In this document: positions 5,036-31,638 of the stretch, in pieces
How positions within the stretch are numbered: position 1 is the first letter of the stretch
How the letters are laid out: each line of letters begins with the position of its first letter
NCBI RefSeq assembly: GCF_032062105.1
Contig: NW_026936910.1
Span: forward strand, 1-64,000
Length of the DNA: 64,000 bases
Direction: 5' to 3'
Origin: Saccostrea cucullata
Taxonomy: Eukaryota
Translations under genes and position numbers: made by a program
The notes under the pieces: generated by a model
The model's database searches: none
What the model saw: only the letters and a program-made list of their open reading frames with translations
Told to the model about the DNA's origin: nothing

Positions 5036-5053
5036 TACTAAGCAAGATTTTTA

Positions 5054-6616: not shown

Positions 6617-8926
6617 AATTCAAGGGGAGATAATTGGGAATTAATGAAATTTGGTAGCATATTTTAAAAATCTTCTTCCCAAGAACCATTGTGCCAGGAA
6701 AGATGAAACTTATGGGAAAACATCCTCAGGTAGTGTAAATTCAAGTTTGTTCAAATCATGAGCCCCGGGGGTAGGGCGGGGCAAAAATGGCCGACCAAAG
6801 TTTTACATAGAAATATATAGGAAAATTCTTTAAAAATCTTCTTCCCAAGAATGACAAAGCTATAATTCATCATGTTTATATGGAAGCATGCTCAGGTAGT
6901 GTATATTCAAGTTTGTTCAAATCATGACCCCCGGGGGTAGGGCGGGGCCAAAATGGCTGACCAAAGTTTAACATAGAAATATATAGGAAAATTCTTTAAA
7001 AATCTTCCTCTCCAGAATGACAAATCCATAATTATTCATATTTATATGGAAGCATGCTCAGGTAGTGTAGATTCAAGTTTGTTCAAATCATGACCCCCGG
7101 GGGTAGGGCGGGGCCAAAATGGCCGACCAAAGTTTTACATAGAAATATATATGAAAATTCTTTAAAAATCTTCTTCTCAAGAATGACAAATCCAAAATTC
7201 ATCATATATATATGGAAGCATGCTCAAGTAGTGTAGATTCAAGTTTCTTCAAATCATGACCCCCCAGGGTAGGGTGGGGCCAAAATGGCCGACCAAAGTT
7301 TTACATAGAAATATATAGGAAAAATCTTTAAAAATCTTCTTCTCAAGAATGACAAAGCCATAATTCATCATATTTATGTGAAAGCATGCTAAGGTAGGGT
7401 AGATTCAAATTTGTTCAAATCATGACCCCCGGGGGTAGGGCGGGGCCAAAATGACCGACCAAAGTTTTACAAAGAAATATATAGGAAAAATCTTTAAAAA
7501 TCTTCTTCTCCAGAATGACAAAGCCATCATTCATCATATTTATATGGAAGCATGTTCAGGTAGAGTAGATTCAAGTTTGTTCAAATCATGACCCCCGGGG
7601 GTAGGGCGTGGTCAAAATGGCCGACCAAAGTTTTACATAGAAATATATAGGAAAATTCTTTAAAAATCTTCTTCTCAAGAATAACAAACCATAATTATTC
7701 ATATTTATAAGGAAGCATGCTCAGGTAGTGTAGTTTCAAGTTTGTTCAAATTCTGACCCCCGGGGTAGGACGGGGCCAAAATGGCCGCCCAAAGTCTTAC
7801 ATAGAAATATATAGGAAAATTCTTTAAAAATCTTCTTCTCAAGAATGATAAAGCCATAATTCATCATGTTTATATGGAAGCATGCTCAGGTAGTAAAGAT
7901 TCAAGTTTGTTCAAATCATGACCCCCGGGGGTAGGGCGGGGCCAAAATGGCCGACCAAAGTTTTACAAAGAAATATATAGGAAAATTCTTTAAAATATCT
8001 TCTTCTCCAGAATGACAAAGCCATAATTATTCCTATTTATATGGAAGCATGCTCAGGTAGAGTAGATTCAAGTTTGTTCAAATCATGACCCCGGGGGTAG
8101 GGCGTGGTCAAAATGGCCGACCAAAGTTTTACATAGAAATATATAGGAAAATTCTTTAATAATCTTCTTCTCAAGAATAACAAAGCCATAATTATTCATG
8201 TTTATAAGGAAGCATGCTCAGGTAGTGTAGTTTCAAGTTTGTTCAAATTCTGAGCCCCGGGGTAGGACGGGGCCAAAATGGCCGACCAAAGTTTTACATA
8301 GAAATATATAGGAAAATTCTTTAAAATATCTTCTTCTCAAGAATGATAAAGCCATAATTCATCATATTTATGTGAAAGCATGCTAAGGTAGTGTAGATTC
8401 AAATTTGTTCAAATCATGACCCCCGGGGGTAGGGCGGGGCCAAAATGGCCGACCAAAGTTTTACAAAGAAATATATAGGAAAATTCTTTAAAAATCTTCT
8501 TCTCAAGAATGACAAAGCCATAATTATTCATATTTATATGGAAGCATGCTCAGGTAGTGTAGTTTCAAGTTTGTTCAAATCCTGACCCCCGGGGTAGGAC
8601 GGGGCCAAAATGGCCGACCAAAGTTTTACATAGAAATATATAGGAAAATTCTTTAAAAATCTTCTTCTCAAGAATGATAAAGCCATAATTCATCATACTT
8701 ATATGGAAGCATGCTCAAGTAGTGTAGATTCAAATTTGTTCAAATCATGACCCCCAGGGGTAGGACGGGGCCAAAATGGCCGACCAAAGTTTTTAAAGAT
8801 ATATATAGGAAAATTCTTTAAAAATCATTTTCTAAAAAATAGCAAATCCATGATTGGTCATGGGACTACTTTTGGATTTAAATTTTACAATAAATAGCCA
8901 TTTTCTACTTTTTCCTACCCATAGTG

Positions 8927-9852: not shown

Positions 9853-10544
9853 ATCTGGTTTGATTGAAATAATAGTTTGTAAAATCTCATGCACAGAATG
9901 TACAGAGACGTATATTGATAAGGAGTGATAAGACGTATTGCGACCTGTATTTGTTGACTTGCACTTATGTTGTCAATGTATATATACAAATAATCATTTT
10001 GTCATCTTAAAACGTTTTCCGTTCAACTCGCATTACTATATTGTATGCATATCAAGGTATTTTTAAACCATTTAGTATGAATTTGTATATATGTACAGTA
10101 ACTTACAATTAAAGATATGAGTGATCAGGTTTAAATCATTGGGAGATATCTACAATGACTTGTTTATTTATTGCCAAATCTGATCGAATTATAAGAGATA
10201 TTTCATGAGGAGATACAATGTTCTAAAAGCGGCATGTGACCTACTTGATAAATGAAATAAATCGATTTATTAGATAAACCGTTTTCTTCTATAATCTTTT
10301 TCAAAGGGACAATAAGGCACAGATTACAAGTTCATATTTTTACAAATTTTCTTTATACTAAATGCCTTACATTATTAATTTGTTGCTAAAACATTTCACC
10401 GGGGAATATTACTGAAAAAATTTATTTTATCTGGAAATCATTGAAACTATACAAATCTCAGCACGCATTTGATTGACACATTCGTGCACTTTTAACAAGT
10501 AAAATAAGATGATCATCAATATTCAAAGCATGGATCGATTAGTT

Positions 10545-11927
10545 TTACTGATCTTCATACAGTAAAAATCCAGAAAAGCTGCTCTCCCAACCAAAAGCGT
10601 TAACTCCATCTGATACTGAGAGTCGAACCCAGACGGAGTCCCCAGCATTTACATGGACGATGGTCATTCCGCCTCCATTTGCGCAAACTTCTTTGCTATA
10701 TACGAAGTGCCCAGCCCGTCCGACACCCTCCACCACTAGTTCAGTGTTGACACTATGCCCAGTAGCACACATAACTAGTTGCAAGTAGAACACATAGACA
10801 CCAGAAACATCAGGAGTAAATAGAAATACCCCTGTGGCGTGATGGTATTTATTTCCAATGTTGGTGATGGCGTTGTCAAAGATCAGGTTCTGATGAGCAG
10901 CAAGGTTGGAGTGGTCCTTTGGAGCATTGGCGTGGAAAGCTATTCTCGGTGTCATTGATGTGAAATTGAAACATGAGAGTGTTCATTAAACAATATTATA
11001 TATATTTACGGCTGGCCATAATCATAATATTCAAACTAACTAGACGAGAAGTCTATACGTATGAGATGAGAGAAAAATGTATTAAATACCAAGATAGAAT
11101 ATGTTTAAAAACTTTACTAAGTAAAAGTTCTCGACTGGAAAAATGACATTTGATAATTTGAGATGAATTTGTATGCAAGTCTACTTCAAACACCAGATAC
11201 AGTATGCTAAATTTCGCTACATACAGCCAACTGTGAAATTGAGTAGGAAAACATGAACTAGGCAAGTCTTCTGCCGGATATTTTACCACATATTTTGACG
11301 GGAAATGATATTTTACAGACTGTGAATGGTATGCCCGGAAGCTATATCCTGTAATCTTTGCATTTTTTCATCATTCTGCGACAGAAGTTCCCTAATGAAG
11401 ATAGTGTTCATCATACAGCCATTAATGTATTATTTATTTGAATCCAGACTACATTAAAAAGCAATTGTGGGCTCATAATTTGTCGCTTGCTAATTTTTAA
11501 AGAAAGAACAGGACAGTAAGAATTACTGTCTGTATAGCTACACTGTACCTGTTTGTTGTACACGGCCTGGTGTTGGGTGTGCCAGTTCTTCTCTTCTTAT
11601 TCTTCTGTCTTGTTTCAATGGGGAACTAATGGAACCTTCTACTGCATGGGGAGTTTCATTCTGAGTTTGGACATTCTCTACAGTCTCATCAGCAGTATGA
11701 TCGGTTTGAATTTGCTCACATTTGTCCGGTTTTTGCGCCACTTCTTCTTTGAGTTCTTTAATTTCCTCTTTCTGGTGAAGGACCTCTTCTCTCAATTCCG
11801 CTAACTCGATTCTCAGTGCCCGGATGTCTTCTGAACATGCTTCATTTGATATACCATGGTTTCTCAGGTCCTCCGATGTAATGCAGCCAATGAAAGCGAG
11901 AATAATCACGATTTTTGTGATCGCCAT
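10545..11927 (-). CDS. C1qDC secreted protein B; non-canonical or mutated splice acceptor, possible pseudogene or defective allele
   Basis: Exon 1 11927-11549 (MAITKIVIILAFIGCITS, coiled coil, RRIRR, donor G|GTACAG). Exon 2 10957-10545 is an open C1q domain (MTPRIAFHA...SSFSGFLLYEDQ*). The position homologous to paralog A's acceptor reads TTTCACAT, not ...CAG. Confidence 0.85.
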
Positions 11928-12139
11928 AACTGGTTTGATTTAAAGAACAATTAGGAAATCCTTATTCACAGTGTAATCCCAGAACTTTCTTCATAAGAAA
12001 AGATAAGGATACTTGTGATCTGTATTTATTTCACTGAGCACTGCTATATTAGTCTTATTTTTTCCCAACTTTTTCGATGTAGTCACATTTGTTTTCTCAA
12101 CGAGAGTGTACAGAATCCTGACAAAGAAAACTAATTTTA

Positions 12140-12345
12140 TTTGTTTGTATGTTGTTTAACGTCTCTCTCGAGAATTTTTCACTTATACATGTATTGAGAG
12201 TCAACCACTTGACGATGGAGAGCTACAAATGTTGTCCTATACTCGGCACTTAAGGCTATTGAACAGTGAGAAATCTTTTTCGTGTCAGTACCTACTACGA
12301 CACGGGACCTCGGTTTATAGAGTCTCATCCGCAGGACAGGTGTTT
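12140..12345 (-). mobile_element. 5'-truncated MetaSINE copy
   Basis: Reverse complement matches the core and tail of the SINE at 2440-2735 (GTCCTGCGGATGAGAC...CCGAGGTCCCGTGTCG...GTGCCGAGTATAGGAC...GAAAAATTCTCGAGAGAGACGTTAAACAAC). Confidence 0.8.
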
Positions 12346-12774
12346 ACGTCCTACATACTTGCGACCGAGTTGAAATCTCTCACCCCATTCATTAAACGGA
12401 AGTCTCTGGTGGTGAAAAATATACCCAGATGATTTCAAAGTTGGTTTCTTTTCAGTGTATTTTTCTTCTTCTTTAATGAACGATTTATTAATTCAAAATA
12501 GGTATATCCATGATCGAACTTGAAAATTCATTTTAGGAGTGCATGGTGCAGCAAATTAGTACTAGGTTACCACTAGTTTTATATTGATAAACACTCTCTT
12601 ATCGTTTAAATTAGTACTTAGTAAACAGACTGAGTTCATTTATTAGAACAGTGTAACTTTTTTTTGACTGTACATCAACTTTAACACACAACTTGTATTT
12701 CACCACCAAGTTAGTTACAGCATTCAGAAATAACTTTCAATAAAAATTGATTTTTAAATCTATTATTCTTTTTA

Positions 12775-14365
12775 TTAATCCTCATACAGTAAAAACCCAC
12801 AGAAGCTTGTCTCCCACCCAAATAGATTCCTCCCGCTCGTTGTAGCCTCCCTTACCCACACGGCATCTCCGGCGTTCACGTGGACGATGGTCGACCCTCC
12901 GCCGTTAGCGCACGTCGTCGATCCCCCGGCATAGTGTCCCCCTTTACTGACCCCCCTCCACGAACAGTTCCGTCCGGTCCTCGTGACCAGCGGTACACAT
13001 GATCAGTTGTACGTGGAAAACGTACACGCCCGATACGCTGGGAGTAAAGATCCCGGATGTACCATGGTATCAGTTACCAACGTTTGAGATGACGTTCCCG
13101 AAGGCCAGAGTTTGATGGACCGAGATATTCTGATAATCTATGGGTTTGTTGGCATAGAAAGCTATTTCTGCAAAAGAATTGTTTAAGATATATTAAATAA
13201 TAGATCAAAATTATACTTTAAATCCCCATTTATACGTGTCCGCTTAAACTATAGTCATTTATATACATGTATCAGCAAGTAACTAACTTTTTAAAATCTG
13301 GTTATGAAAGTTTCGAAAGTTTCCATAATGCTACACCTCTTGAACTACAACTAAACCTTATTGTTCTGAGTTTTTATAACCTTTGCAATATATCGTTACC
13401 GATAAAATACATTATATATGTGCATATATTTGCACAATCTAACTTTATTCTCATAATTTGGACAGTGATCGACGTACACCGGCGGACTTTGTTTTGAGCC
13501 TCGCGGCTAACACTCGGAGTTCCTCGGATGGTTCGTACCTAGCACATAACCTCGGACGTCAACGGTGATCTTCCATCTTGCTGATACAGTCATGTGATAT
13601 TATTTGAATTTCATTCAAATGTTATACTTTTGAAATCTGAGTTACTTTGTTGCACGCCCAACACTGTGTTCTTCTAGATCTTTCAAAAACTACTCAGTAA
13701 CATATGGTTGTGATTAACATGAGGAATTACACAAATCAAGAAACCTATTTGGAAGAACTTTAGGCAGAGGGAAATATGAAAAGAGACAAGGCAGTTTCCG
13801 GCGGGGAAATGTGTCGACTTGATGCGTATCACTCCACCTGTCATATCCCAAACTCCATACAGTGTCGATTCTCCGGGACTACTTTCCCTACGAATAATGA
13901 TATGGAGTTGTAGCGTAACGTAATACTGAGCTGTTTGGAGCTTGGTCATATCCGAGGTTTCAATAGAGCGTAGCGGAGTCAGCCGAGAATTGCCGATTGT
14001 GCGGCTACATTTAACAATTCAGTCTGACTTAACTCTATCCAGAAAAATAAATGGCCCATCGACTATTTACCTGTGGTGACCTTTTGCGAGTTTAGCAATA
14101 ATCGTCGATTTCTTTCTTGAGTAAGTAATAATCTATTTAGATCAGTTTCATCTCTCCTGGAAGCGCTGTCGCTCTGCGGACTTCCAGTTTTAGGGTTCAG
14201 TCTTACTTCCTGTCGGAGCTGCTCGACTTCCTGTCGTAGTAACGATCGTTCCTGTCTTAGAAATCGAATGTCATCTGAGGAAGATTCTTCGCCATTTGAC
14301 TCTGTTAATCCTAACCACACAAAAAACAAACATATCGCTATAAAGGCATATTTCTGGATGGTCAT
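12775..14365 (-). pseudogene. C1qDC gene C, disrupted
   Basis: Exon 1 14365-14071 is open (signal peptide, coiled coil, RNRR, donor G|GTAAAT). Exon 2 13167-12775 (IAFYANKP...TSFCGFLLYED*) has an in-frame TGA at 13072-13070 and a +1 G in the homopolymer at 12951-12956. Confidence 0.85.
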
Positions 14366-15885
14366 TATACTATATTTTTAAGTTTTCCTTAATAAGTTTA
14401 TATTACAATACTTAATAATTTGATCTTTCCCTAGAGGAATTGATAAGGATTTGTAGGTCAGAATGTAGGAGCTACATGTAGTATAGAACCACATGTGATT
14501 ATACAAGTCACTGATAATGCAGAATCCGATGACTAATAAGCGTTAATTAACAAAGAAGGGACCAAAAAAGCAAGGTGTTTCAACCATCTGAATAAAACTT
14601 CGGGAAAACATAAAATCAGGGTCATTGTTTTGGCGGCTTAACACGCTCCAATTTATGTACATGTATGTCATTGCTATATATTATGTAAAGATATGATTCC
14701 CAGCAAGTTATACATGTAAAACTAATGATTTCCGAATCCTTTCTGATATAATAAATATTTTCGTGGCTGTTAGGGTACTTACTTACTTAGAACCTATTTT
14801 CATTGGCTATTAAGTCAGAGTTACTGCATAGACAAAAAATCTTAACAATTAAGTGCTGATTGGAGGAAAAAGCGCGGGTTAGGTTCTATACACATTTAAA
14901 AAAGTCACTGTAATATTTTACAAATATATAACGAGATATATTTTGTGAATATGCATGCTTTTTGAGTTCTTCTCTACATTGATCCAACATACATGTACAT
15001 CCAGGAACGTATAATAGATTATAATAAAAAATCGAGACGTTATTCAAGAATCTTTTTCAGGAATACGCTTAATATATAATTTAAAAAAAAATGTATTATA
15101 CTAAATCTTATATTGATTGCTATCGAGTTCATGACTGTTAATTGTCCACATTTTATTCAAATTTATTGTCCTCAGACTCATCGAAAAAGAATAGAAAATG
15201 TAAATAATTTGTAATTGATTTATTGCTCAGGATAAACATCCTATGGCATTTAACAAAATGCACAATTATATTTACATAGAGCTCTAGGAAATGAAGCGTT
15301 GTACATATGATGGGAAAAAGTCACAATGACCTTGTATGACAGGGATATTATAACTGTCCTTTACAGATTTACAAATGTAATAAATACAATATGCATGTAA
15401 AGTTTACATATAACATACAGATAAATTATTGACAGTTCCTTATTTCAAAAGCTTTTAAAATATATTTTCCAAGACTACAGAGTTCTTTGACAATATTAAC
15501 ACTAATGAGCTGTATAAATTTAAACACAGAGGGTTTACTCCAATAACATTTCTTAATGATTTTTTTTTTCTCAAGTCTATATGTATCAAGGATATATATG
15601 AGTATAAAATCAAAATGACATTCATCCTCTAAATCTTTATGTGATTTACAAATTGGACATTATCTTTGGTCTCTTGGGATATTTTTGTGCGTGTCATTTT
15701 CAATTACTATAGGTTGTATGAGGACAAAGGAATTTTAGAAATACATCTCTTAAACATTTTTGGAATAGGCTTCACCAATTAGTATACTGTAGACAGAAGT
15801 TACTAATTAAGTGTTTATATATACTACACTTTGATTCTTTATATACTTGATTCTTTCTATATATATTCTTTATAAATAAAAAAAA

Positions 15886-17280: not shown

Positions 17281-17743
17281 GACTTGTAAATGTATCTACT
17301 AGTATATTAAGTTCAAGTCGATACATATGGTACATGTGTAATATAAAATGATCTTTTTATAGCATTACTCAGACAAAGGTACAACTTTGGAACAACATGT
17401 ACGTTACACCTGCATCATGGCTGCATGCGATAGAAAGACACAGGATATGACTTATGGCATAATTACATCTCTCACTCATTAGCTGTTAAAAATGTATCTT
17501 TTAAAATAAGAAAGGCTTTCAATCAATGCATCATTGACTTTTGAAGAAAAATATAGCTTTGCAATGTCCCAGATTATATCAACTATAAAATTTTGTTCAA
17601 GTTTGCTTCTTCTACTGAGCATCTATGGATACTGAAGTTCAATCAATACAAAAAACTTTTTAAATGAAAGTCTGCTTTGAATTCAATAAGGGGCGCACAG
17701 GGTGGGCTATAAAAATATTATTCAGGTCCTTTTCTGAAATATT

Positions 17744-18877
17744 TCACACTCTTCCATTGTTGCACGTTTTCTTCAGTTTCTCTACTTCACTGGACAATGA
17801 TTTTATTTTCTTTCTCTGCTGTTCTAACTTAGCGATCAACTCCGTCCTACTCATTATTTTATGGGAATCAGTGCTGTTCAGATAATTTTTATCTTTCGCA
17901 TTCATAGCTCTCTCTGTCTCTCTTGATTTTCTCATTCTGAGCTTATGACGAATTCTTTGGCAAGGCTTGCACCTGCTATTTTGCACCAGTAAAGGGCAGT
18001 TTACAGACCGGATGCACGAGCTATATGAAACATCCCCCAAGATGGCACAAAAATCTCCTTCTCGGAAAGCCACTATGTCATTATTACCCGTGGTAACCCC
18101 ACTCTTGACGGAACCGTCCACTGGCACAATGCTATGAAATTCCTCATCAGGATTTCCAAAACAAACAGAAAACGAACTTATTCTTCTCATTAGGTCTTCT
18201 ACCAAGGTCACTGTTGAAAACTCACTGGGCATACCAACCCAGCATGGATGAGTTTTTGACAATTCTCTCCTGTGCACAAAAAGACGGGCATGAAACTCTG
18301 TATCGATAAGGACGGAAAGTTTGACACCCGTTCTCGCTGGAGAACTGCGGTACATTTCTATGATATTTATAGCATCATCATTAAAGTCTAAAAAGTAAAG
18401 CATTTTAAGGAAATCACTTCCATGCAGGTTGTCATAAAGGATTTGTAGTGGAGTGACTTTGGTCTCTATCTCGACACTTGGCTGAGAGAGTTGAACATGG
18501 TTGAATTCAGTATCGGTAGATTCTTCATTAGTCTGTAATTCAGTTGTTGTGAGGGTGTACCAGTTTACTTGGGATTCACATTTCACTCTTTCTTCTAGTT
18601 CTTCTGGGACATTATTTACATGTTCTCCGTCTACCTGTGCATCACATTCATCCTTTTCTTGTTTGATTATTTGACTGGGAACACTACATTGATAATTCCA
18701 GCCTCCCTGTGGGTCCGACTTCTCCATTTCTACAACAGTTTGAAGTCCTTGTGGCGCACTATATCCATGTTCCTGAAGGATTCCTTTTTTAACCTGGCAA
18801 TTTTCTTCTGTTATCTTCCTCTTTTTATAATGATATTTCTTTCTCTGGCAAATCAAGGTTCTTTTTTTCCTAGCCAT
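17744..18877 (-). CDS. 377-aa uncharacterised nuclear-type protein resembling the N-terminal non-catalytic region of invertebrate P-element-like (THAP9-related) transposases
   Basis: Uninterrupted ORF preceded by a splice acceptor (ATTTTAG|A ATG at 18880-18875). Basic NLS-like N-terminus (RKKR, KKYHYKKRK), motifs VCFGNPDEEF and IRSVNCPLLVQNSRCKPC, C-terminal coiled coil. No DDE catalytic region. Family resemblance is from memory, not a search. Confidence 0.65.
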   Translation of the reverse strand: MARKKRTLICQRKKYHYKKRKITEENCQVKKGILQEHGYSAPQGLQTVVEMEKSDPQGGWNYQCSVPSQIIKQEKDECDAQVDGEHVNNVPEELEERVKCESQVNWYTLTTTELQTNEESTDTEFNHVQLSQPSVEIETKVTPLQILYDNLHGSDFLKMLYFLDFNDDAINIIEMYRSSPARTGVKLSVLIDTEFHARLFVHRRELSKTHPCWVGMPSEFSTVTLVEDLMRRISSFSVCFGNPDEEFHSIVPVDGSVKSGVTTGNNDIVAFREGDFCAILGDVSYSSCIRSVNCPLLVQNSRCKPCQRIRHKLRMRKSRETERAMNAKDKNYLNSTDSHKIMSRTELIAKLEQQRKKIKSLSSEVEKLKKTCNNGRV

Positions 18878-19950
18878 TCTAAAATAAGAAAAATTATTTT
18901 TGTATTAACTAAATACATTCTCATCAATCTTTTCTAAATTTAAATTATAAGGCTTTAGCTCTAATGATAAACCATGATTAGTTGATTACATTTACCAGTT
19001 CCAATCAGGAAGCTTAGCTATACCTAGCTAGCATACCTATACCGTAGCTTTCTTTATAGGTACAATGTACTTTCATGCAACTTTGGACAATTTTTTGCTT
19101 TTTTTATCATGCTGGCGCTCTCAATGTAATTCTTAAATGAGGCAAGATAAAGCAACAAGACCTTTATAGTATAGAGGGCTAGACCAATTTCCATAGCAAA
19201 ATTTTACTTAAAAAATAAAATCCGTCATTTACAGAATTACATGAAGCGTCTTAGCCCTATATGCTTTCTTTTTTATAGATTACTGATGTTGATACATAAC
19301 AAGTTATTTTTTTTAAGCGATCCAAAGCAGAGAAAAATTGGAAAGTAGAACGTACATTTAAGTAACTGTTTAGTTATATGTGTATTGAATTGCCCAGTCA
19401 AAACACCTGCAGTTTCAAGTGATACCCTTTGACTAAAGCCAGGAGTGAACTCGCAATTTTTTTTTCTCACTTGATTGACCATTCATCTTAATTAAGCCTT
19501 GAGTTTTGTGTACAAGTATATGCATTAGATGATTACTGTAGCAGGCTATGCTAAAGCATACAGCTCATGGCTTGGTGACAATCGAGTGATTTTCTATTAA
19601 CTTTTTTGATAAAGTATTAATTGTGAACTTCTGACAGTTCTGTGGACTAAGCTCAGACGCTATTTCATGCATGCTTGGAAATAATCACTGCATGCATCAA
19701 TCAGCAATTATGCACGTGCTAAGAAAAATAAAAATGCTAAATAATGTTAGACTATTCTTCAGGTAGCTAGGTAAATAAGGCTACATCAGTATGTAGCTAT
19801 ATTGATACTGGACACTATAAACATGATAAACTGTATTTGCTCAATGCAACTCGATATGTTGCATGTTCACCTTACATGTAGTTATAATAGTCATGGGCAC
19901 GTCAACAAAATTCCAATAGACTTTGTTTGCTAACTGAAAACAAAATTTAC

Positions 19951-20394
19951 CCTTCCGGAGAGCTGTAGACTGCAGATTAGGCTATATTATGGAGCAAAAG
20001 TAGGTCAGTACGCAGGGCAAACATGTTGTCTGACGTCACCCCTTTAGTTAGGGAGAATGACACGGTCACCGGATGTTGCGAAAACTTTACAAGGGTGACT
20101 CCATTTTTAAAGAAGGGGTGTCAAGGTTTCAACCATTGCGGTTCGAAATGCGCAGAATATAATTGCGATATAAGATTTATTGGAAACATTCGCACAGAGA
20201 TCGCTGAAAGGTGTTTATGCATGGATTAAAAAATGAAAACGTCGAAATCAGAAAGTGCAGCTGTGATAAACAAATCGCATGAATTTAGAACGACCTATTA
20301 GCGGAAGTTGACAGCATGCAGGTGTGACGTCAGAGGGAAAACAGAAACAAGATGGAAAACTAAGTTATACAGGTGCGTAATAAGCCGTGTTATC
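19951..20394. promoter_or_regulatory. Compact bidirectional promoter, including a putative non-coding first exon of the minus-strand gene
   Basis: Minus-strand donor AAGG|GTAAAT at 19950. Two perfect CRE palindromes TGACGTCA (20031-20038, 20325-20332), ETS-type CCGGAAG/CCGGATGT/GCGGAAGT (19952, 20069, 20301) and YY1-like AAGATGG (20349), lying between two divergent genes. Confidence 0.6.
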
Positions 20395-23300
20395 ATGATG
20401 AATTCTGACCTAATTACCCCAAAATTTGACGCTGATGATGAAGGAAGCATGAACGAGGACGAGTCGGAAGTTGTCATTAGGACAGGGATAAATTATTTCA
20501 AAGACTACGTGAGTGCGAAGGGACACAGTCTGCAGGCACTTGCTATGATGCCGCCCGTTCAAATTGCAGATTATCTGAAAGATTTCTACACAACTATTAA
20601 GTCCCAGGATGTCGAGCCTTTTCCGTCGTCTCTGAAATTCATAAGGAATGGTCTGCAAAAATATTTTATGAAGCATCATGGCATTGACATTGTGAAAGAT
20701 AGAGATTTTGTGCATGCGAATAGTGTTTTTGATAAAGCAATAAAACAGGTTCCCCGTAGGTGTCATCGGCTTAGAATAGAATTCGAGGATCTTAAAAAAC
20801 TCTACATGGGTCCTGCTTTGGAACTCGAGCAGCCTATATGAACAAAGTGTTTTTAAAGATTCAATTTGTACATAACAAGTTATTTTTTGAGAGCAATCCA
20901 AAGCAGAGAAAAATTGAAGTTGCAACAAGTATGTTTTTATATGTGTATTGAATTGCACAGACAAAGACACATGCAGTTTCAAGTGATAACCTTTGACTAA
21001 AGCAGGAGTGAACTCGCAATTTTTTTTTCTCACTCGATTGACCATTCATCTTAATTAAGCCTTGAGTTATGTGTAGATTTTTGCAGTAAAATTGGTTGTG
21101 GAGAGTATGCTAAAGCAACAGCTCATTCTTTGAATTGCATCAACTTCAGTTGCCAACTTTTTTGATAAAATATTAAAGTGTGTCCTGACAGGCTTTCACT
21201 GCAGTCAAAAGCTATTTCATGCATACTTGGAAATAATCACTGCATCAATCAGCAATTATATGCAACATGTAAGAAAAATTATTTCAAAGATAACAAAAGG
21301 GGTTGCACTGAAATTAACAACCATTTGAGATTGTTTGACTTTTATTCCAATTCATACAAAGTTGAAAACACAACTAATTTCTTAAATAATTTTTCGCTTC
21401 AAATTTACACGCCATGTTTACCATTTGTGTTTACATTTAGCATGTTTCAGAACTCTCAGGATTGTTTGTAGTAAATGGACTGATTAAGATTTATCCCTTG
21501 TGTTTATTTTGCTACATTGCTAATACGCAGGTCAGGAACCTGTTGTAGAACAATCACCCCTTTTTAACGATTGAAGGTTCATCTATATTGTGAAAAGTTC
21601 AAGGGTGCATTTTTAAAGAATCTACTTTGCACCATTGGGGTTGCCACAATCCATTAATCGCAATATAAATTTATTGGAAACATTAGCATACTTAAAATCT
21701 TGATAAAAGTTTACTGATTAAAGATTGAACAAATCAGAAAGTACAGCTATGAAAAACAAATCGCATGAATTTAGAACGACCTATTAGCGGAATTGACAGC
21801 ATGCAGGTGTGACGAAGGAAAACAGAAACAAGATACTAAAAGAAGTTATACAGGTGCGTAATAAGCCGTGTTATCATGATGAATTCTGACCTAATTTCCC
21901 GAGGTAAAAAATTTGATTTTCGCACTCCTGATGATGATAGGAAGCAAAATGAGGAAAAAAAGTTGTTTAGGAAAGAATGGATAAATTATTTCAAAGACTA
22001 CGTGAGTGCGAAGGGACACAATATATAAGCACTTGCTATGATGCCGCCCGTTCAAATCGCAGATTATTTGAAAGATTTCTACACAACTATTAAGTCCACA
22101 GGATGTCGAGCCTTTTAACATGCTCGTTTCTGAAAAAAATTAAAATAAGGAATGGTCTGCAAAAATATTTTATGAAGCATCATGGCATTGACATTGTGAA
22201 AGATAGAGATTTTGTGCATGCGAATAGTGTTTTTGATGTCACAGTAAAACAGGTCCCCCGTAGGTGTCATCGGGGAAGGGGGAATAGAATTCGAGGATTT
22301 TAAAAAACTTTACATTTTTTAAACCTTAGCAGCTTCTGATACTTTGCAGAACAAAGTGTTTTTCGATGTCAATTTGTACATTTGCAATCGTGGAAAAGAC
22401 TTTCTGAGAGTGATGTCGAAATCTGACTTTGAAGTTGCAACAGATATGGAGGGACGACGGTATGTTTGGCTGAAGTATAATTCCAAGTTCAGCTTCAAAG
22501 AGTTGATCGGAGGGCTGAGTGAGAATGACTCGGTCATTCATGGAAATCAGATTGGCGAACGCATGTATGAGCGCCCAGGTATTCTATTTTTAGTAAAATT
22601 GGTTGTGGAGAGTTTTGAAAGTTTCTTTGAATTGCATCAACTTCAGTTGCCAAATCTGTGATCAGTCCAGTTAGAATAATCTAAGTGTGTCCTGCAGGGT
22701 TCGACACTAACATTTTTAGGCTTTGGTCCGGCCAGACTAGTGCGTCTTTACTTTTACTAGTCCGCGATCAATTTTATGAGTCCGTCAAAAATAAAAATAA
22801 ATAAATAAAATTAATGTTGCAATGTACTTTTTATACTTTTTTTTAAAAAAAACAAAAACAAAGCATTTACATGAAATGTTTATACCAAGAATTCGTTGAA
22901 ATCGCACAATCAGGAACTACGATCATATTCCTGATCTCATTCGTTTTTCACTATACATGATTACATCATCTAAACATCTGACATCTTTCTTTATGTGGCA
23001 TACTAAATCATAATCGCTAAAATGTTTAATTTCATTCCTGACCAATGAGTCCTAAAATTAAGCGCCGAATTGACTCAGAATTACCTAACTTTCTGCTAAG
23101 AAGCTAGAAAGCTAAAAATAAATATGGGGTTTTCCAGTGAAAGTTATCGAAAATTTGAACATCGGTAAATTCTTTTTTTTTTCCCCAGAAAATTTTATTA
23201 GTCCGTTCGGACTAATTAGCTACAATTTTTATTAGTCCGAATGAAAATGTATTAGTCTGAGACTAACGGACTAACGTTAATGTCGAACCCTGTCCTGGGT

Positions 23301-26300
23301 CAAGCCCTCACTGCAGCATCTTCGCTAGCCAAGAGTTTCTGATACGCTACTCTCCTCATGAACCCTTGGCAGTACAGTGAAGTCAAAAGACAGGATTGTT
23401 TTCGTCATGTGATCTCGAATCTATCAAGTTTTTGTCACGTGATCTGGAATCTGTCAGGTAGGGACAGATTGTGTCATCGACAGAAATAAAGACGCATGTT
23501 TAAAAAAAAAAATTAAATCAAAGTGTTTTTTCAAGAATAATTAAGAAGCAATAATTGAATTATGTTATTTTAATATTTATAGTACAAATCTGACGCTTTA
23601 ATATAGATTCTTAATCACATATTTAGAAGATATTGGATGACACCATAGCTATTCATAGAATTGCATGTTATCTTATGGATCGTTGTTTACTTGCGTTTTT
23701 CATTCCCGAGATTAAAGAGTCAAGAAGTATCCCGAATGCCAATATCATCATTTACAAAATTGCTGATTGGTCGACCAGGTGTACCGAAGCCCAATCAGAA
23801 CTCAAGGAAAAAACCTAACTTCTATCAACACCGTATGCCACGGTATTATGAGGAGAGTAGCTTATCAGAAACCCTTGGCTAGCGAAGATGTCACTGCAGT
23901 AATAATATGTCCCATATGCTTGCAATATACATGTAGCAAATCGGAGTGGATCCACTCTAAAGCAATTTTGAAGAATACAAAAGGGGTTGCACTGAAATTT
24001 ATAACCATTTGAGATTGTTTGCCTTTTTATTCCCCCCAAAAATTCATACAAAGTTGAAAACACAAACTAATTTCTTCAATAATTTTTCGCTTCAAATTTA
24101 CACGCCATGTTTACATTTAGCATGTTTCAGAACTCTCAGGATTATTTGTAGTAAATGGACTGATTAAGATTTATCCCTTAATTGTGTTTATTTTGCTACA
24201 TTGCTAATACACAGAAGGAACCTGGTCCGTAAAACAATCATTTTAACGATAGAACGTTCTATCTATATTGTAAGTTCATGTCTTCAACATGTACTTTGGA
24301 ACAGGAGGGGCTTGCCAGAATCCATTCCTCTTCTGTCAACTTTTTTCCCATACTTTAAATCTTGATAAAAGTTTACTAATAAAGGCATTGAACATTGGGG
24401 CAATGGTTTAGACCCTTCAGATTCCCTCCTACTTTCATTCAACATGCAGAGGTTGCAGAGCACTATTCAAAGAAGGTTAAAAAAAAAATAAAAGACTGAA
24501 AGAGTGTTGTCTTTCATGTCGTCCCTCCCCCTCCTTCCCCCGAAATAGAATTGTCACGTTCGGACAATTTACTATTTTTCCCGAGGTAAATCATTAATTT
24601 TGTCCTCTTTAAATTTGCCCACTCCTATGCCTTGTATACTATAAAATGAAAAAAAAATAAATTTTGGGAAGGAATGGTCAAATTTAAAGAAGATTACTAA
24701 GTCGTGATGAGACCACAATATATAATGATCATGATGATGCAGATTTGACCTTTTAGTTTGTTGCAACTTTTGCATATTTGACATTTCTAGACCAAACTTA
24801 CTCCTACATGCCCATGAGTAAGAGCCATGCTTTATAATTTACCTTGGGGAAAAAAAACTAAAATTAGAAAATCGTCCAAACGCAAGCCAACAATCCTATT
24901 TCGTACTTTTTCCACGCATGAGTGAATAAAGCAGTCCCAGGGTGACCGTAAAGCAATCCAGGGGACTGCTTTCTGGATATTTTGGGTGTCACTCTGCCAT
25001 GGTTGGGATTGGTTGGTTGGGGGTGCATGGGGATGGGGGAATCAAAATTCTTTTGGTACCAATTTTTTTTAAACCAAACCACTTGTTCTTCTTCAAATAC
25101 ACTGCTACCTGTACATGTAAGTGTTGAAAGTAAGAATGCTAAATCTATGCCCCAATATTCAATGCCTTTACTAGTCTTTTTTTTTTTTTTTTTGGAAAAA
25201 AGGGGGGAGGCTCCAAGTCTCAAATGCCTGTAGGGGGTGGGGCACTCAAAGGGATGGATATGGTAATTGGAATATTTTGATTTTAAAGTGAATAAAAAGA
25301 TATTTGTGTTGAGTATTTCAATTAATAAGATGATTAATGTGCTAATTATGTTCTTTGAAATTCCTGATTAAATATACTCTCAGAGCTTTTAATAACTCAT
25401 ACTTCTTAATTAAAGCCTTTGTATGTGTCATTTTCATTTTTTGGTGAATACTATTGGTTGCATTGTATCTACATGATACAGGTCAGATATTTACAATTGT
25501 CAGAGACTGTTTGATTGGCTAATTTTTGAAAGTGTTAATTGCACCATACACACATTACATCACCAGGATCAGATAGTTGTATGTAATTATGTCAATTCTT
25601 CACGAGGGTCTATTTTTCAAGCAATTCTTTCCAGACAAGTTTTATATTTGTTCACACAAAACTGTTATTGATTTCTATTTTAATCAACTTTGAGTTATTT
25701 AAATACCAATGAACATGATGAAGCAAATTTTTAAATTAAAATATAGACTTCATTTAACCATGTATATATAGTTTAAAAAAAAATGTCATATCCATAGATC
25801 ATAATATTATGCATATGTTATAGAGTCTGATATACTAATATTTCAAAAAACAAAATGATGGGTCCATGTTTTTAAAATTCTGTACATTGATATTTGGAGG
25901 TGTAAATAAACTGAACCATTTTCTCCTTTTAAATCAAGCATATCCCTTGTCAATCATCTGTAGAATGGAATACAGCTTTAACTTGCTGTTATCTCAAATG
26001 CTGGTATTTAAGTACCAATCCATGTAGTGGGCATGTGCTAGTCAGTAGTGTATGTCTGTTATTTGGAAGACCCAACTGCTGATTCTTAATGTATATATAT
26101 AACTTCTAATATCTCAAATCATAGGAATCAGATATATATCTTAATTTTTTTTTTTTTTTTTCAGGGTCTATGATAAATCTTTAAAGAGTAGAAGAGAATG
26201 CATAGTTACCCAGGTTTGACTATACGCACTCTTTGTTATTCTTTTCCCAGGTGATCCTAAATGTCCCGTGGCCTCGTTTCTGCAGTACTTAACACATCTT

Positions 26301-26516
26301 CACCCAATGACGGAGGCGTTCTGGCAAAGACCGAAGCGGAACTTTGTGTCGGAGGATTATGTCTGGTACGATAACACCCCGCTGGGAAACAGCACAATCA
26401 GCAAAATCATGACCCGCACATGTCAGGTAGGTCAAGGTCAGATATTTAGTGACCTAATTTATAATCTTGGTAACCGCAGGTTTGTCACTTCATATTCACT
26501 TGGTATGATATCCCCC

Positions 26517-26549
<33 letters not shown>

Positions 26550-29500
26550 AAAAATAGATCTGTAAATCACACGTTTTATTTGTGAGAACTTTTATTTTTG
26601 TAATTACCTGAGAACATCTGTTCATAAAAATTAAATTATGCCCCCTTAGAAGAAGCGTTCTGTCTGTCTGTTCACCAACAGTCTCTGTTGACTTCATTTT
26701 TCTTTGCGCAGGTTGCACATACTGAAATTCTGCTTGAGTATGGTCAAGCAATATTGGACAGAGTTATGCCCTTGGACTTAGAAAATTTGCAGTTGTTTGC
26801 AGTTTCTATTCATTTTCTTTGTATAGGTTGCACATGTTGCACTTACTGAAATGAAATTTGGTTTACAGATATATCATTAAAATATTTTAAGTCAAATTCT
26901 GCTTTGGGTGTGATTGAGTAATTTTGGACATGGTTATGCTCTAAGACTCAGAAAACTTCGAATTTACTATAATAGAGGCCTTCCAGGTAAACACAAGGTA
27001 TTTAAACAGAATAGTGCTTACAATTGCACCAGAAACGGAATTGCAAAATATTATCACAAGTGTCTGTGAATCTAGTTTAAATATTGCGAAATCATTCAAC
27101 TACTGAACTAGTCAGGATCAATATGCAGAACCTTGTGATTTATTTTATAATTTACAAAATAGTTTGTTATAAAATAAGTATATTTAGAAATAATACAAAA
27201 AAGTATTGCAACATTCCAAATGAACATGATGAAAGTGTCTCAGCATTGCAAAATTTGATATAATTTTCCTTTTCGGTTTGCCCCAATTCTCACTGATCTT
27301 TACACCAGGCCAGTTTATTTTGACATTTTACATGTTTTACAAAAGCTTTCGCTATTGTAACTTGGAAAATTTTGCCAGCCAGCATGGTCCATATTTCCTT
27401 CCTCTTGAGCAAAGCAAATTTTGAGAGCAATTCACCAATGTTTTGCTTACCAACATTGAAATTTGTATGTGTTATTAGTTAATAGTTATTAGTTTGCTTT
27501 CTAGTAGAATATTTGAATTATAAAAGTAAAAAATTATTACAATTAACTTATACCAGTGTTTAAAACTCACTGTAAAATAAGCGAGACATGGAGGACTGAT
27601 TGATAGTTAAAGTTGTCTGCCCTGCTAAAAATCTACTAGCCCCCCCCCCCCCCCCCAAAAAAAAAATTGTTATTTGAAAAGTTTGATTTAGCCAAAATGT
27701 GAATGGGATCGACTCACTATATATTTGATTCCGGACCTATACGCATGATGAATTCTACCCATTTGCTTGTTACACTTTGCAACCAGTAATAGTTGATTTG
27801 AAAGTTTTATCAAATTTATGGAAAATTTTTACTCATCAAGCCGGGCGTCAAAATTTGTGCGTCTCGAGCAGTCGGGTGCAGGGTTATTATCTCACCTCAA
27901 CGAAGTTGGGGGAGCTTATGTAATACTGTCGGTGTCAGTGTCGGCGTCCCAGGTAAAGGTTAAGTTTTTTGAAGCAGTTTTCTTTTCAAGTACTTCTATG
28001 ACCTATATTGATTAGACATGCATGGAAGATGTTTCTAGTGTGTTTCATTGTACCAGTCAAAGTTTCAGATGCTGCAATTTCAACAAAGGAATGACCAGGT
28101 TTAATATTTTTGGAGCAGGTTAACATATTTGGTGCAGTTTTTGGTGTAGGTCTCATTTCCAAGTAACAATAAGCCCTATGTTGACCAAACTTGCATGGAT
28201 GGTACATCTTACTAGGATGCACACTACCAAGCTGCTGCTTGCTTTGGATGCTGAATCTGACCTACATTTTCCGCATGAGTAAACAGGTTTATGTTTTTGG
28301 TGCAAGTCTCATTTCCAAGTAACTATGAGCACTATAGTGACCAAACTTGCATGGATGATGAATGCAATACTGGTAGGATGCAATACTACCAGAATTGCTT
28401 CAGATGCTGAATCTGACCTACATTTTCCAGTTCAGTAAACAGGTAAAAGTTTTTGGTGCAGGTTTCATTTCAAAGATACTATGAGCCCTATAATGACCAA
28501 ACTTGCATGGATGGTACATCTTAGGATGCATACTGTCAGGCTTGCTTCGGATGCTGAATCTGACCTACATTTTCCGGTTGAGTGAACAGGTTAAAGTTTT
28601 TGGTTCAGGTTTCATTTCCAATTTACTATGAGCCCTATAATGACCAAACTTGCATGGATGGTACATCTAAGGATGCATACTTCCAGACTTGCTTCGGATG
28701 CTGAATCTGACCTACATTTTCCGCATGAGTGAACAGGTTTATGTTTTTGGTGCAGGTTTCATTTCCTAGGTACTGTGAGGCAGCCCTATAATGACTAAAC
28801 TTGCAAGAATGATACATCTTAGGATGAATACTACCAGACTTTTCTGGATGAGTGAAAAGGTTAAATTTTTTGGTGCAGGACTCATTTCCAAGTAACTATG
28901 AGCCCTATAAGGACCAAACTAGCATGGATGGTACATCTAAGGGTGCATTCTACTAGACTGACTTCGGATGCTGAATCTGACCTACACTTTCTAGATTTGT
29001 GAAAAGGTTCGTTTTTTATACAGGATTCATTTCCAAGTAACTTTGAGCTCTATGTTGAGCAAACTTGCATGGATGATACATCTTAGGATGCACACTAATG
29101 GACTTGCTTCAGATGCTGAATTCGACATACATTTTCCAGATAATGGACCTCGTAAAAGTTATGGGTGTAGGTCTATTACCAAGAAACTATAAGGCTTATA
29201 TAAACCGAACTTGCACAAATGATGCATCAAGGGATGAAAACTCTCAAACTTGCTTCAGATGCTGGATTTTAATTACGTTTTTATGATGAAGAACTAGTTT
29301 GAAGTTTTTATATAGGTCTATTCCAAAGTATCAAATCAAAATTGCATAAATTTTGCATTTTTGGATGTACACTTTTTGTTGGTTAATTGTGTGACTTGGC
29401 CTTACTTAAAGACAACATTCGTTGAGGTGAGCTCTGTAATCTCTGATTACCTATGTTTGGACTTTTGGAAAAATTCCATTTGGGGGGGAGGGGGCATGAG

Positions 29501-31638
29501 TGTTTTACAAACATCTCTTGTTTATTAGGATTTGAAATAACAATGGTAAATACGTGTATCATGAAAAAAAAGTTGTTGGGACCGCACACTCACTTTGGCA
29601 TTTCCCTGATATATCATTCTATTAGACTCAGTGTTGTGTAAAATAAAGTTTGAGTTTAACTGTATGTTGTCTATTTCAGATGGCAGGACTTTTTGAGAAC
29701 TACACAAATCATGCCATCAAGAGTACATACGTACCGGTCATAGAGAACATCTGCCAGGAGGCCGCCAGAAAGCGCGTGGAGGGGAGTTCCCCACCCCTGC
29801 AGCAGAGAAGACAGGTCTCACGTACAGACTCAGGAATCGGGGAGGGGTCAGTCTGCTCCGACGTCAAGGACGGTCAGACAGATGACCTTGATGAGCCCAA
29901 AGATGGTGAGAGGTCATAAATAGACAGTAATAATTATAGTTACTATAGTCATACCTTGCTATATGTATACTTGTATGCAATGTGATGGGACCAAGAAAAA
30001 ATGACATTATGGGGATTAGAGATAAAGTTCAACACTGATTTCTCAAATAATGAAATGTCAAAGTGATTTAGAGGTTACCTCATAATTAATGTATTTTACC
30101 AGATCTTATAGATCATATGTAGATATTTTAAGTCTTTGGATATCAATAAGTTTTTTTTTGTTCCCATTGATTTTGAGATATCGAGGTTGAATTTATCTGT
30201 ATTAGGTTAAAAAATAATAAAAAAAAAGAATGATGTATGAAATTCAATTTCATTTATAAACATGACATTGAAGATAGATCTGTTTTTAAACTGTATCTTC
30301 CTTTTTAGGACTACGCCAAGCTAAAATGAAGGTCCTTGACGTGGTCCATGGCCTGGAGGTCAAGGACATCCGTACTTTTGTGGAGTGGATCAAAACATTT
30401 AGGGTGGAGTATGATGGAGGGGGTAAGGAACATATTGAGAAAATCTTGGCATTTAAAATTATATCAAAGTTAATGAACCATGATAATGAACTGTGGATAA
30501 AAATTAAAAAAAAGTATCATAATCCACACTTCAAGAAACTACTAACAATTTAAGTGTCAAGTGAATCCTTTCTGAAAACTTTTTATTTTTAATATGATGG
30601 TCTGAATATTTAAGCTTACATGTTGAATAAGAGGTACAAAGAAAAAATAATGGCATGAATGAATTAATGCACAAATTGACATGAAATGAACTTTTTGATT
30701 ATTATTAATATGTATATTCTGTAGGTCTTGTGGTTATGTGCAGCCCAGTGGACCAAACCAACAGTGAAGCCAAGAGTGACATCAAACCAAAAATAGACCT
30801 GGGTCTCGTAAATGGGGACAGACTGCGAGAATACTCCCCCACCCCACCTCCCAAGAACAAGTCTGGATCCCCCTCCCCCATGGTTCTTAAGAATATTGAC
30901 CCCCTGTCCCGTCTTTCCCATCAGGACAGCAGAGAAAAATTGGTGGAGGATCGAGCAGAAGACCTAGGGGTGGCGGTGAAGCAGGTGGAGTTTGAGTGTG
31001 TTAACAACACCTACTGCTCCACGTCCAGCCTTGATCCTCTGAAGATCACGGTGCCCAGTGAGAATTCCGTCCTTCTGTCTGGAGTCTCAGACAGTGTCCA
31101 GGTACTGGTTCACAACAAAGACTCCCCCTCAGTCATTCCTGAGCCATTGAAGTCCCGAATCTTCTACTCTAAGCACGAGAAAGACGTGGCTGTTCTGTCC
31201 GTCTTGAGCAACAAAGATGGTAACTCCAAAACAGCCTGTGTCCCTTCTACGGCTGCCGCCGAGAAGACGGACTGCTCTAAAATACTGCAAGATAAACACA
31301 AGCCGGTAAAGAAGAGAAGTCTTACCGACTTGCATGCTGGGATACCGAGGGAGGAGTACGAAATGCCTCCCAGAAAACAGCCAGCCATCAGTACCATTCC
31401 TCCATTGATTCCTAAGTGTCAGCAGACGTCGGAGTTTAAGCCCACGTCTATTTACAACGTCCCAATGTTAAGCCAGGTGCCCCTCTACGACAGGCTGCCC
31501 CGGTCCAGGAACATGCCCTTCGCCCCGGTCCACAGGAGCCACAGCAGTCCCCTGATTACATTCGCTAACAGTGCACCCTCTACAGTGCTGAGGAACCCTG
31601 GGGAGAACGGGGATATTAAGAGGGAACAATACAAGTGA
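20395..31638 (+). CDS. Crypton-derived DUF3504 (degenerate tyrosine recombinase) protein, KCTD1-N/ZMYM/KIAA1958-like, with a long C-terminal extension
   Basis: Exon 1 20395-~20836 joined to ~22338-22578 across the misassembled block (YLKDFY...SLKFIRNGLQKYF...DIVKDRDFVHAN...IEFEDLKKLY...TLQNKVFF...NRGKD). Exon 2 26251-26426 (DPKCPVASFLQYL...FWQRPK...WYDNTPLGNSTISKIM). Exon 3 29680-29905 (AGLFENYTNHAIKST). Exon 4 30309-30422. Exon 5 30725-31638. All introns are GT-AG with compatible phases. Confidence 0.85.
20840..22330. other. Probable assembly artefact: chimeric duplicated segment
   Basis: 20840-21270 copies 19270-19730 interleaved with words from 22340-22700. 21275-21700 copies 23970-24380. 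21720-22320 is a frameshifted copy of 20245-20805 interleaved with words from 24570-24700. Confidence 0.8.
22695..23292. mobile_element. Non-autonomous DNA transposon with CAGGG termini and 5-bp TSD (hAT5-like)
   Basis: TCCTG|CAGGGTTCGACA...TGTCGAACCCTG|TCCTG; subterminal AGTCCG/GGACTA repeats. Confidence 0.8.
23317..23890. mobile_element. MITE with ~60-bp TIRs and 9-bp TSD (Mutator-like)
   Basis: TCACTGCAG|CATCTTCGCTAGCCAAGAGTTTCTGATACGCTACTCTCCTCAT...ATGAGGAGAGTAGCTTATCAGAAACCCTTGGCTAGCGAAGATG|TCACTGCAG. Confidence 0.88.
26635..26965 (+). repeat. Degenerate HINE remnant
   Basis: TTATGCCCCC start, CTGTCTGTCTGT microsatellite, and degenerate units like those at 600-1000. Confidence 0.5.
27884..29458 (+). 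mobile_element. HINE element with ~8 copies of a ~147-bp tandem unit
   Basis: 5' TTATTATCTCACCTCAACGAAGTTGGGGGAGCTTATG, (TGTCGG)n, units starting GACCAAACTTGCATGGATG at ~28183, 28338, 28495, 28642, 28792, 28912 and 29057, 3' CGTTGAGGTGAGC plus palindrome GTAATCTCTGATTAC...TGTT. Confidence 0.85.

Follow-up and report, generated by a model that had tools for sequence, protein, structure and literature searches.

The subject of this work is a pair of divergently oriented genes in a 64,000-nucleotide stretch of the Saccostrea cucullata genome (NCBI RefSeq assembly GCF_032062105.1, contig NW_026936910.1, positions 1 to 64,000), hereafter the window, which corresponds to bases 1-64000 of contig C19047 in the genome that was searched, i.e., 1.17 Gb in 23,869 contigs. 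The minus-strand gene resembles the N-terminal part of a P-type transposase, and the plus-strand gene appears to derive from a Crypton recombinase. Both are real, spliced and single-copy, and their ages are very unequal. The original prediction, made from the sequence alone, had read them as a co-regulated module built from two unrelated DNA-transposon superfamilies; the two origins hold, and the module is not supported.

The minus-strand gene has a short non-coding first exon of at least 30 nucleotides (19951-19980), an intron (18879-19950) whose acceptor, TTTTAG followed by AATG, is that of the element itself, and a coding exon (17744-18878, ATG at 18877) that specifies 377 amino acids and is covered by RNA. 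Its unspliced 3' untranslated region (UTR) extends at least over 17454-17743, based on RNA and on a match to the tail of the Saccostrea echinata counterpart. RNA contigs and reads connect 18878 to 19951, the excised intron being CT..AC, or GT..AG on the minus strand, and this joint is present in three of the four RNA runs (X24, with one read, X4, and X11; none in X3). The plus-strand gene begins with the ATG at 20395, 445 bp from the minus-gene donor at 19950, as predicted. Its first exon is divided in the assembly into 20395-20833 and 22336-22578, both backed by RNA and an orthologue, and is followed by exon 2 (26251-26426, RNA and Pfam), exon 3 (29680-29905, RNA), exon 4 (30309-30422, recognized from mollusc orthologues), and exon 5 (30725-31638, to the stop, RNA). 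The joints 26422-29676 and 30421-30724 were found in all four RNA runs, and X3, X4, and X11 show continuity from exon 1 to exon 2, with loose ends; the intron before exon 4 is placed by its GT-AG ends and the orthologue, and is absent from the displayed RNA joints. Regarding the sources of these transcripts, X4 and X11 were taken as RNA by guess and X1 is labelled "DNA?"; spliced joints are present in all three, so they do contain transcripts. The X4 and X11 sequences are about 4.5-6% divergent from the window, and are therefore from related lineages; for X1 the divergence is about 1.4%.

The first exon of the plus gene is broken in the assembly by a scrambled insert of 1,502 bp (20834-22335), composed of interleaved degraded copies of 19293-19729, 22586-22653, 23965-24394, and 20009-20873. 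The RNA of X24, X1, X8, X4, and X11 skips it at non-canonical CT..TT ends, and it is likely an assembly artefact or consensus error. Both a real intron and a tandem duplication were considered for this segment and rejected, given the non-canonical ends and the 40-bp tiles that alternate among unrelated sources. With the insert removed, the gene has an open 703-aa frame and four introns, all GT-AG. A separate insertion of about 600 bp, resembling a miniature inverted-repeat transposable element and having inverted ends (CAGGGTTCGACACTAAC..GTTAATGTCGAACCCTG), occupies 22697-23293 in intron 1.

The predicted Crypton origin of this gene, with its degenerate catalytic site, was confirmed. The DUF3504 domain (PF12012) is recognized in the S. 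echinata orthologue at 34.3 bits, against a cut-off of 29.7, and exon 2 of the window, which holds the DUF3504 core, gives E 4e-06 when searched alone, below the cut-off. The protein retains the first catalytic Arg (exon 1, second part) and the His, has Lys in place of the second Arg (NHAIK, exon 3), and lacks the GH..Y segment; an intact NHCLR..GH..Y is found in P0040. Exon 4 begins a conserved C-terminal module without a Pfam match. Neither a BTB nor a MYM domain was detected by Pfam, DUF3504 being the sole match on P0007 at E<=0.05. At the protein level, the gene shares 93% identity with its S. echinata orthologue (LOC133180708), 83% with that of M. gigas (LOC105322056), and 80% with that of C. 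virginica (LOC111110197); for the remaining bivalves and gastropods the range is 36-56%. A protein search returned 31 matches, with 26 orthologue-like (E<=1e-91, the named ones all molluscs) and five far weaker; no vertebrate or insect sequence occurs among the 31, hence none is in the tree. In this quick tree, from which a Mytilus protein that is partial and the unnamed Logan rows were excluded, 20 mollusc sequences group in a single clade (SH-aLRT 100), whose branching roughly tracks the host phylogeny. The last exon is single-copy in the genome, and exon 1 has 49 genome matches, the others being only distant Crypton-like relatives at 25-38%. The gene is single-copy, expressed, and vertically inherited, with exceptions in copy number, namely two near-identical loci in C. 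virginica and two Candidula proteins. The plus gene is an old Crypton/DUF3504 derivative with orthologues across bivalves and gastropods, in keeping with domesticated DUF3504 genes, and it is likely an independent domestication. The original prediction had also noted the lack of visible terminal inverted repeats (TIRs) or element ends in both genes; animal Cryptons lack terminal repeats (PMC3212892), and therefore their absence is uninformative for the plus gene.

Between the two genes lies the divergent promoter region (19981-20394). Perfect cAMP-response elements (CREs) are located at 20031 and 20325, ETS-type cores at 19952, 20069, and 20301, and an AAGATGG at 20349; the GC content of 19950-20397 is 0.42 and its observed/expected CpG ratio is 1.05. 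Measured against 225,499 bp taken from elsewhere in the same genome, two CREs per 448 bp have P~0.001 and three ETS cores P~0.0014, so that the predicted CRE and ETS sites are both present and enriched. The YY1-like site was rejected as meaningful: AAGATGG is there, but its occurrence is within chance on this background (P 0.07), and no full AAGATGGC is present. Transcribed exons extend at least to 19980 on the minus strand and to 20220 or nearer on the plus strand, which would place the divergent start sites less than 1 kb apart, as in bidirectional pairs. In X11 and X24 the RNA depth jumps about 9- to 30-fold from bin 20196-20376 to bin 20377-20557. This jump suggests that most plus transcripts begin shortly downstream of the proximal CRE, and that the minus transcript begins shortly beyond the distal one. 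Two further perfect CREs, 19 bp apart, occur at 37341-37367, perhaps in another promoter.

A comparison with a clam gives an indication of the age of this promoter. A metagenome scan with 206 pattern matches yielded a single locus, L042, which has 76% identity to the Mya orthologue of the plus gene; its 471 bp of upstream sequence are too short to check for a divergent partner. The distance from the proximal CRE to the ATG is 70/73 bp in the window and 73 bp in L042, where the CRE is also perfect, and the two promoters have in common a CAGGTGCG..ATAA motif with conserved position; the score of their alignment was reached by none of 1000 shuffles. As the proximal CRE is conserved in the clam, the proximal promoter is part of the old Crypton gene, and at least that portion predates the pair.

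The minus-strand gene corresponds to residues ~1-326 of an 886-aa parent transposase, i.e., the N-terminal ~40%, and the encoded protein has a basic N-terminus, an acidic low-confidence linker, an alpha/beta domain, a Cys/His-rich module, and a coiled coil. The parent copy, C18547, is an 8.2-kb element with an open 886-aa ORF (open reading frame), perfect 31-bp TIRs, and a 7-bp target-site duplication (TSD); a second subfamily, C6715, has perfect 32-bp TIRs and an 8-bp TSD, and the TIRs of both begin with CAG. These ends agree with those of the P superfamily, for which TIRs of ~31 bp and an 8-bp TSD are given in PMC1562414. The parents encode a P-type DDE transposase with RNase H and GTP-binding insertion domains (PF21787/21788/21789) that matches the Drosophila P transposase 6p5a at E 1.9e-13. 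The minus protein is 56-57% identical to the 886-aa transposase over the shared part, which is its best non-self match, and the gene has 71% DNA identity to C18547 over 467 bp. In the genome, matches to the gene occur at 11 places, itself included, and at the DNA level it is single-copy. The predicted non-catalytic nature of this partner is borne out: tblastn finds only residues 38-326 in the contig, the remainder having E>=2, and the window's best match to the TIR differs from it at 11 of 31 positions, so for this gene the claim of missing ends stands and the window copy has neither the TIRs nor the catalytic core of a mobile P element. A 3' local alignment of the gene with the element (score 77, shuffled maximum 67) was treated as AT-rich noise, being without protein support.

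The parent elements also carry a second, convergent gene on the opposite strand (L019:9129-9968 (-) and L020:8846-9880 (-), in C18547 and C6715), with a small C2H2-like exon and an exon reading FYICGF..RGGLL.P. We take the latter to resemble the domain at the C-terminus of ordinary P transposases; the first ORF seems to lack this domain, and the parent element possibly carries a split P transposase. This second ORF gave no Pfam or PDB match.

The minus gene could be a transcribed, slowly decaying remnant that is open by chance, with the Crypton gene as the sole host gene at the locus. It diverges fast, and the X4 and X11 contigs have a 27-nt in-frame insertion in its ORF. X4 also has deletions of 4 nt and 1 nt that neither X24 nor X11 shows, and for which 12 undisplayed rows may hold compensating indels. 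Moreover, its stop codon is variable: the window stop (17744-46) is a Trp codon in all eight X24 reads, in the X4 and X11 contigs, and in S. echinata, and the flank past it still matches the S. echinata tail. The insertion, the X4 deletions, and the variable stop weigh against a maintained host gene. Nevertheless, two species have the ORF open, their proteins being 66% identical, all eight core residues that are near-invariant in the family, the conserved Cys/His residues among them, are kept, and the transcript is spliced in three of four runs. Between the window and X4, the displayed coding differences number 33, with 15 synonymous and 18 non-synonymous, and give a pN/pS of 0.32, or 0.38-0.45 with transition weighting, significantly below 1 (P 0.001-0.02), although these values come from 33 of 40 displayed rows (six UTR rows and the stop site were dropped) with 112 rows undisplayed. 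The analysis shows moderate purifying selection on the minus gene, and we consider it improbable that the gene is only a remnant.

The two genes also differ in their spread and pace. The S. echinata protein LOC133180817 is 66% identical to the minus protein, ends at the same GRV, and enters the same flank, compared to 93% identity for the plus gene between the same species. In a quick tree, the window and S. echinata minus genes form a clade with support 99, which is sister to P copies of the window's own genome (C18547/C5084) with support 92. The orthologues of both genes in S. echinata each lie on a contig of 7,733,234 bp, and the pair is probably syntenic there; no other orthologue of the minus gene was found. 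The minus gene is likely limited to Saccostrea in age and much younger than the plus gene, and the P fragment likely arrived in Saccostrea much later than the Crypton gene.

According to the original prediction, the two proteins would form a functionally linked pair acting in chromatin or in the repression of transposable elements. It is true that both genes are expressed in the same RNA runs, that they are spaced by 445 bp with one CRE near the 5' end of each, and that the pair is probably kept in two Saccostrea species. However, the Crypton gene is present in about 20 molluscs in which no partner was found, the rates of divergence are very unequal (66% vs 93%), and a head-to-head placement is common among domesticated transposons that have no functional tie to their neighbour (23 of 63 human cases, Table 1 of PMC2777200). 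We regard such a linked pair as highly improbable. With a pan-molluscan Crypton gene, a P fragment nested among the P elements of its own genome, and a CRE older than the pair, the ancient two-transposon module is not borne out. Likewise, the proposal that both proteins retained DNA binding and lost catalysis is right in its second half, but binding is unsupported for either protein.

We consider it quite probable instead that an old Crypton gene was in place and that a P fragment later captured the reverse-direction transcription of its promoter. Homology to the elements ends ~24 bp upstream of the minus ATG, at an acceptor common to both elements inspected. The first exon and promoter show no similarity to the 5' parts of these two elements (103 and 54 of 200 shuffles score at least as high), where no CRE was found either. 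The capture reading is supported by these three observations, i.e., the dissimilar first exon, the lack of a CRE in the two elements, and the acceptor shared by both, and the first exon was probably borrowed from the promoter rather than from the element. A P-like element would have inserted about 1-1.5 kb upstream, pointing away from the Crypton gene, and divergent transcripts of the CpG-rich, CRE/ETS promoter would have been spliced from the 19950 donor to the acceptor that the element itself carried just before its ATG. The element ends, the catalytic ~60%, and the second ORF would then have been lost, and the remaining N-half would have been kept under moderate purifying selection. The Crypton-derived protein would be a non-catalytic nuclear regulator like ZMYM/QRICH1/KCTD1, acting independently of its neighbour.

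A number of points weigh against this history. The 18878-19951 splice has overhangs of only 20-30 nt, the start-site table has no entry for these transcripts, and no perfect match to the distal CRE is present in the 471 upstream bases of L042. A non-coding first exon of the element could have diverged beyond recognition. The node that unites the minus clade with C18547/C5084 has a support of 92 and is unstarred, and the synteny in S. echinata comes from equal contig size and not from coordinates. In addition, S. echinata was the only species with an orthologue in a search that missed many relatives of 40-47% identity later recovered, the absence from Crassostrea, Magallana, and Ostrea is based on a protein search and not on their genomic DNA, and an older, fast-evolving orthologue is possible.

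As for what the fragment might do, the model of its core (residues 135-377) has a mean pLDDT (predicted local distance difference test) of 94.7 and a predicted template-modelling (TM) score, pTM, of 0.82. It combines an alpha/beta domain with a beta-rich part that may bind zinc and in which H, C, G, N, R, C, C, C are near-invariant, and has two long helices (170-195 and 210-239 of the core model). No clear structural relative emerged from fold searches with both minus-gene models, with no Foldseek match at E<=0.001; the best VIA Z, 6.3-6.4 for RWD/UBC/Mediator-like folds, covers only the first ~100 core residues and reflects a common arrangement, the Cys-rich part not having been searched alone. 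In the Atlas structure rows, chordate MBD/CXXC proteins match the core encoded by 17747-18475 (-) at TM 0.48-0.49, a lead that the module may have been captured in chordates as well, and the ESM Atlas feature matches are all <0.9. No THAP domain is present in the fragment. Pfam detected none in the 886-aa ORF, no motif resembling THAP was seen on the sense strand in the 5' parts of the elements, and none of the 60 relatives scanned has the domain.

The fragment ends at transposase residue ~326, just before the region that aligns with the Drosophila P transposase from chain residue 124, and therefore has a parallel in the KP repressor: it is an N-terminal fragment that has the putative oligomerization helix and has lost the catalytic core. 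In its account of KP, bioRxiv 10.1101/2020.10.06.328815 reports that this repressor binds P ends and may form heteromultimers with the transposase, and that deletion of the coiled coil did not abolish oligomerization; the helix by itself is therefore no sure interface. By analogy, the fragment might be a KP-like dominant-negative brake that oligomerizes through its coiled coil with the transposase of the intact parent family, a role that we put forward as the likeliest of those considered, yet as a tentative possibility well short of probable. The lack of THAP, the fast evolution, and the 56-57% identity to the nearest transposase weigh against it. A complex prediction of the fragment with the N-half of the parent transposase (median 0.32 against a mark of 0.34, one control at 0.64, alignments unused) was not used either way. 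Another option leaves the history as it is and contests only this function: the fragment would have a host role outside transposon control, as a protein-interaction or zinc module serving as a nuclear adaptor. In 9 of the 60 relatives this module occurs as a fusion with C2H2 zinc fingers, it is weakly like the chordate MBD/CXXC region (TM 0.48-0.49), and its first domain is RWD/UBC-like at Z<=6.3, a common arrangement only; the truncation right past the coiled coil, which mirrors KP, and the presence of an intact parent element make such a role somewhat unlikely in our view.

Similar fragments are found beyond this locus. Among 147 new library matches to the minus gene, 45 have a basic N-terminus, and 22 of these end <=60 residues beyond an alignment that halts at transposase residue 300-349. 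Of 18 relatives that were looked up, 11 have bivalve names, with one C2H2 fusion (Mactra) and ten that are N-half-only, namely from Pecten (2), Mizuhopecten (2), Ylistrum, Argopecten, Mytilus, Mya, and Dreissena (2) (proteins within P0043-P0113). These are scattered among full-length transposases in the tree, and could alternatively be copies that have been broken, or the initial exons of transposase genes that are spliced. It is conceivable, if on the whole doubtful, that bivalves repeatedly convert THAP-less P transposases into N-half genes cut after the coiled coil, a recurring KP-like or adaptor class that has an unnamed zinc-type domain as its basis and of which this locus would be one birth, by promoter capture from an undescribed pan-molluscan Crypton gene, so that a first domestication would have given rise to a second.

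Elsewhere in the window, C1q-domain exons (PF00386) lie at 10545-14377 (-); together with exons resembling signal peptides and a segment that is duplicated (5049-5359, 10543-10856, and 12770-12912), they likely represent a small gC1q cluster. An element resembling a long interspersed nuclear element spans 56214-62337, with a minus-strand endonuclease (58922-59551), RVT_1 (56214-58544), and broken frames, and an ORF1-like coiled-coil ORF is present on the plus strand at 61267-62337. A single-exon ORF of 377 aa at 51954-53087 (-) has several hydrophobic segments and looks by eye like a G-protein-coupled receptor, with no Pfam match at E<=0.01. Tandem arrays consist of ~166-bp units at 6663-8862 and ~150-bp units at 28136-29309, the second being heavily covered in RNA runs.

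The locus offers a datable animal gene birth, with a donor transposon family that persists intact in the same genome and an older promoter owner that can be followed through the molluscs. A further gain is a Crypton domestication that is likely independent and is conserved in both bivalves and gastropods, and the recurring N-half-only P-transposase genes of bivalves are candidates for protein-level transposon repressors. Immobile P neogenes with a captured promoter and a non-coding exon are known from Drosophila. We found no paper on the plus gene, the minus gene, the pair, or bivalve P fragments in a literature search that ran outside Repbase, subscription journals, and supplements.

The plus gene resembles the DUF3504 genes described by Kojima and Jurka in 2011 (KCTD1, KIAA1958, ZMYM2/3/4, QRICH1, and WOC; PMC3212892), which have likewise lost the second Arg and the catalytic Tyr; the His is kept in both KCTD1 and the plus gene, and all are spliced and conserved with a long non-Crypton C-terminus. 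Unlike them, the plus gene has no BTB or MYM domain, has its own conserved C-terminal module, and is found here in molluscs only; it is unnamed in the domestications section of that paper, whose supplementary DUF3504 accession lists could name a mollusc member. Regarding the minus gene, capture of a promoter by this route is described for mammals in the legend of Fig. 1D-iii of Kalitsis and Saffery 2009 (PMC2777200), whose Table 1 makes the head-to-head placement common among domesticated transposons. The case described here is a variant of that bidirectional-promoter hijack, in a mollusc, where the promoter owner is itself an older domesticated transposon and what it hosts is a truncated, THAP-less KP-like fragment. 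Finally, the fragment is like the Drosophila KP repressor, as presented in bioRxiv 10.1101/2020.10.06.328815, in being an N-terminal part of a P transposase that ends after the coiled coil with the core lost, and differs from it in that both the fragment and its parent family lack THAP and have an unnamed alpha/beta and Cys-rich module instead.

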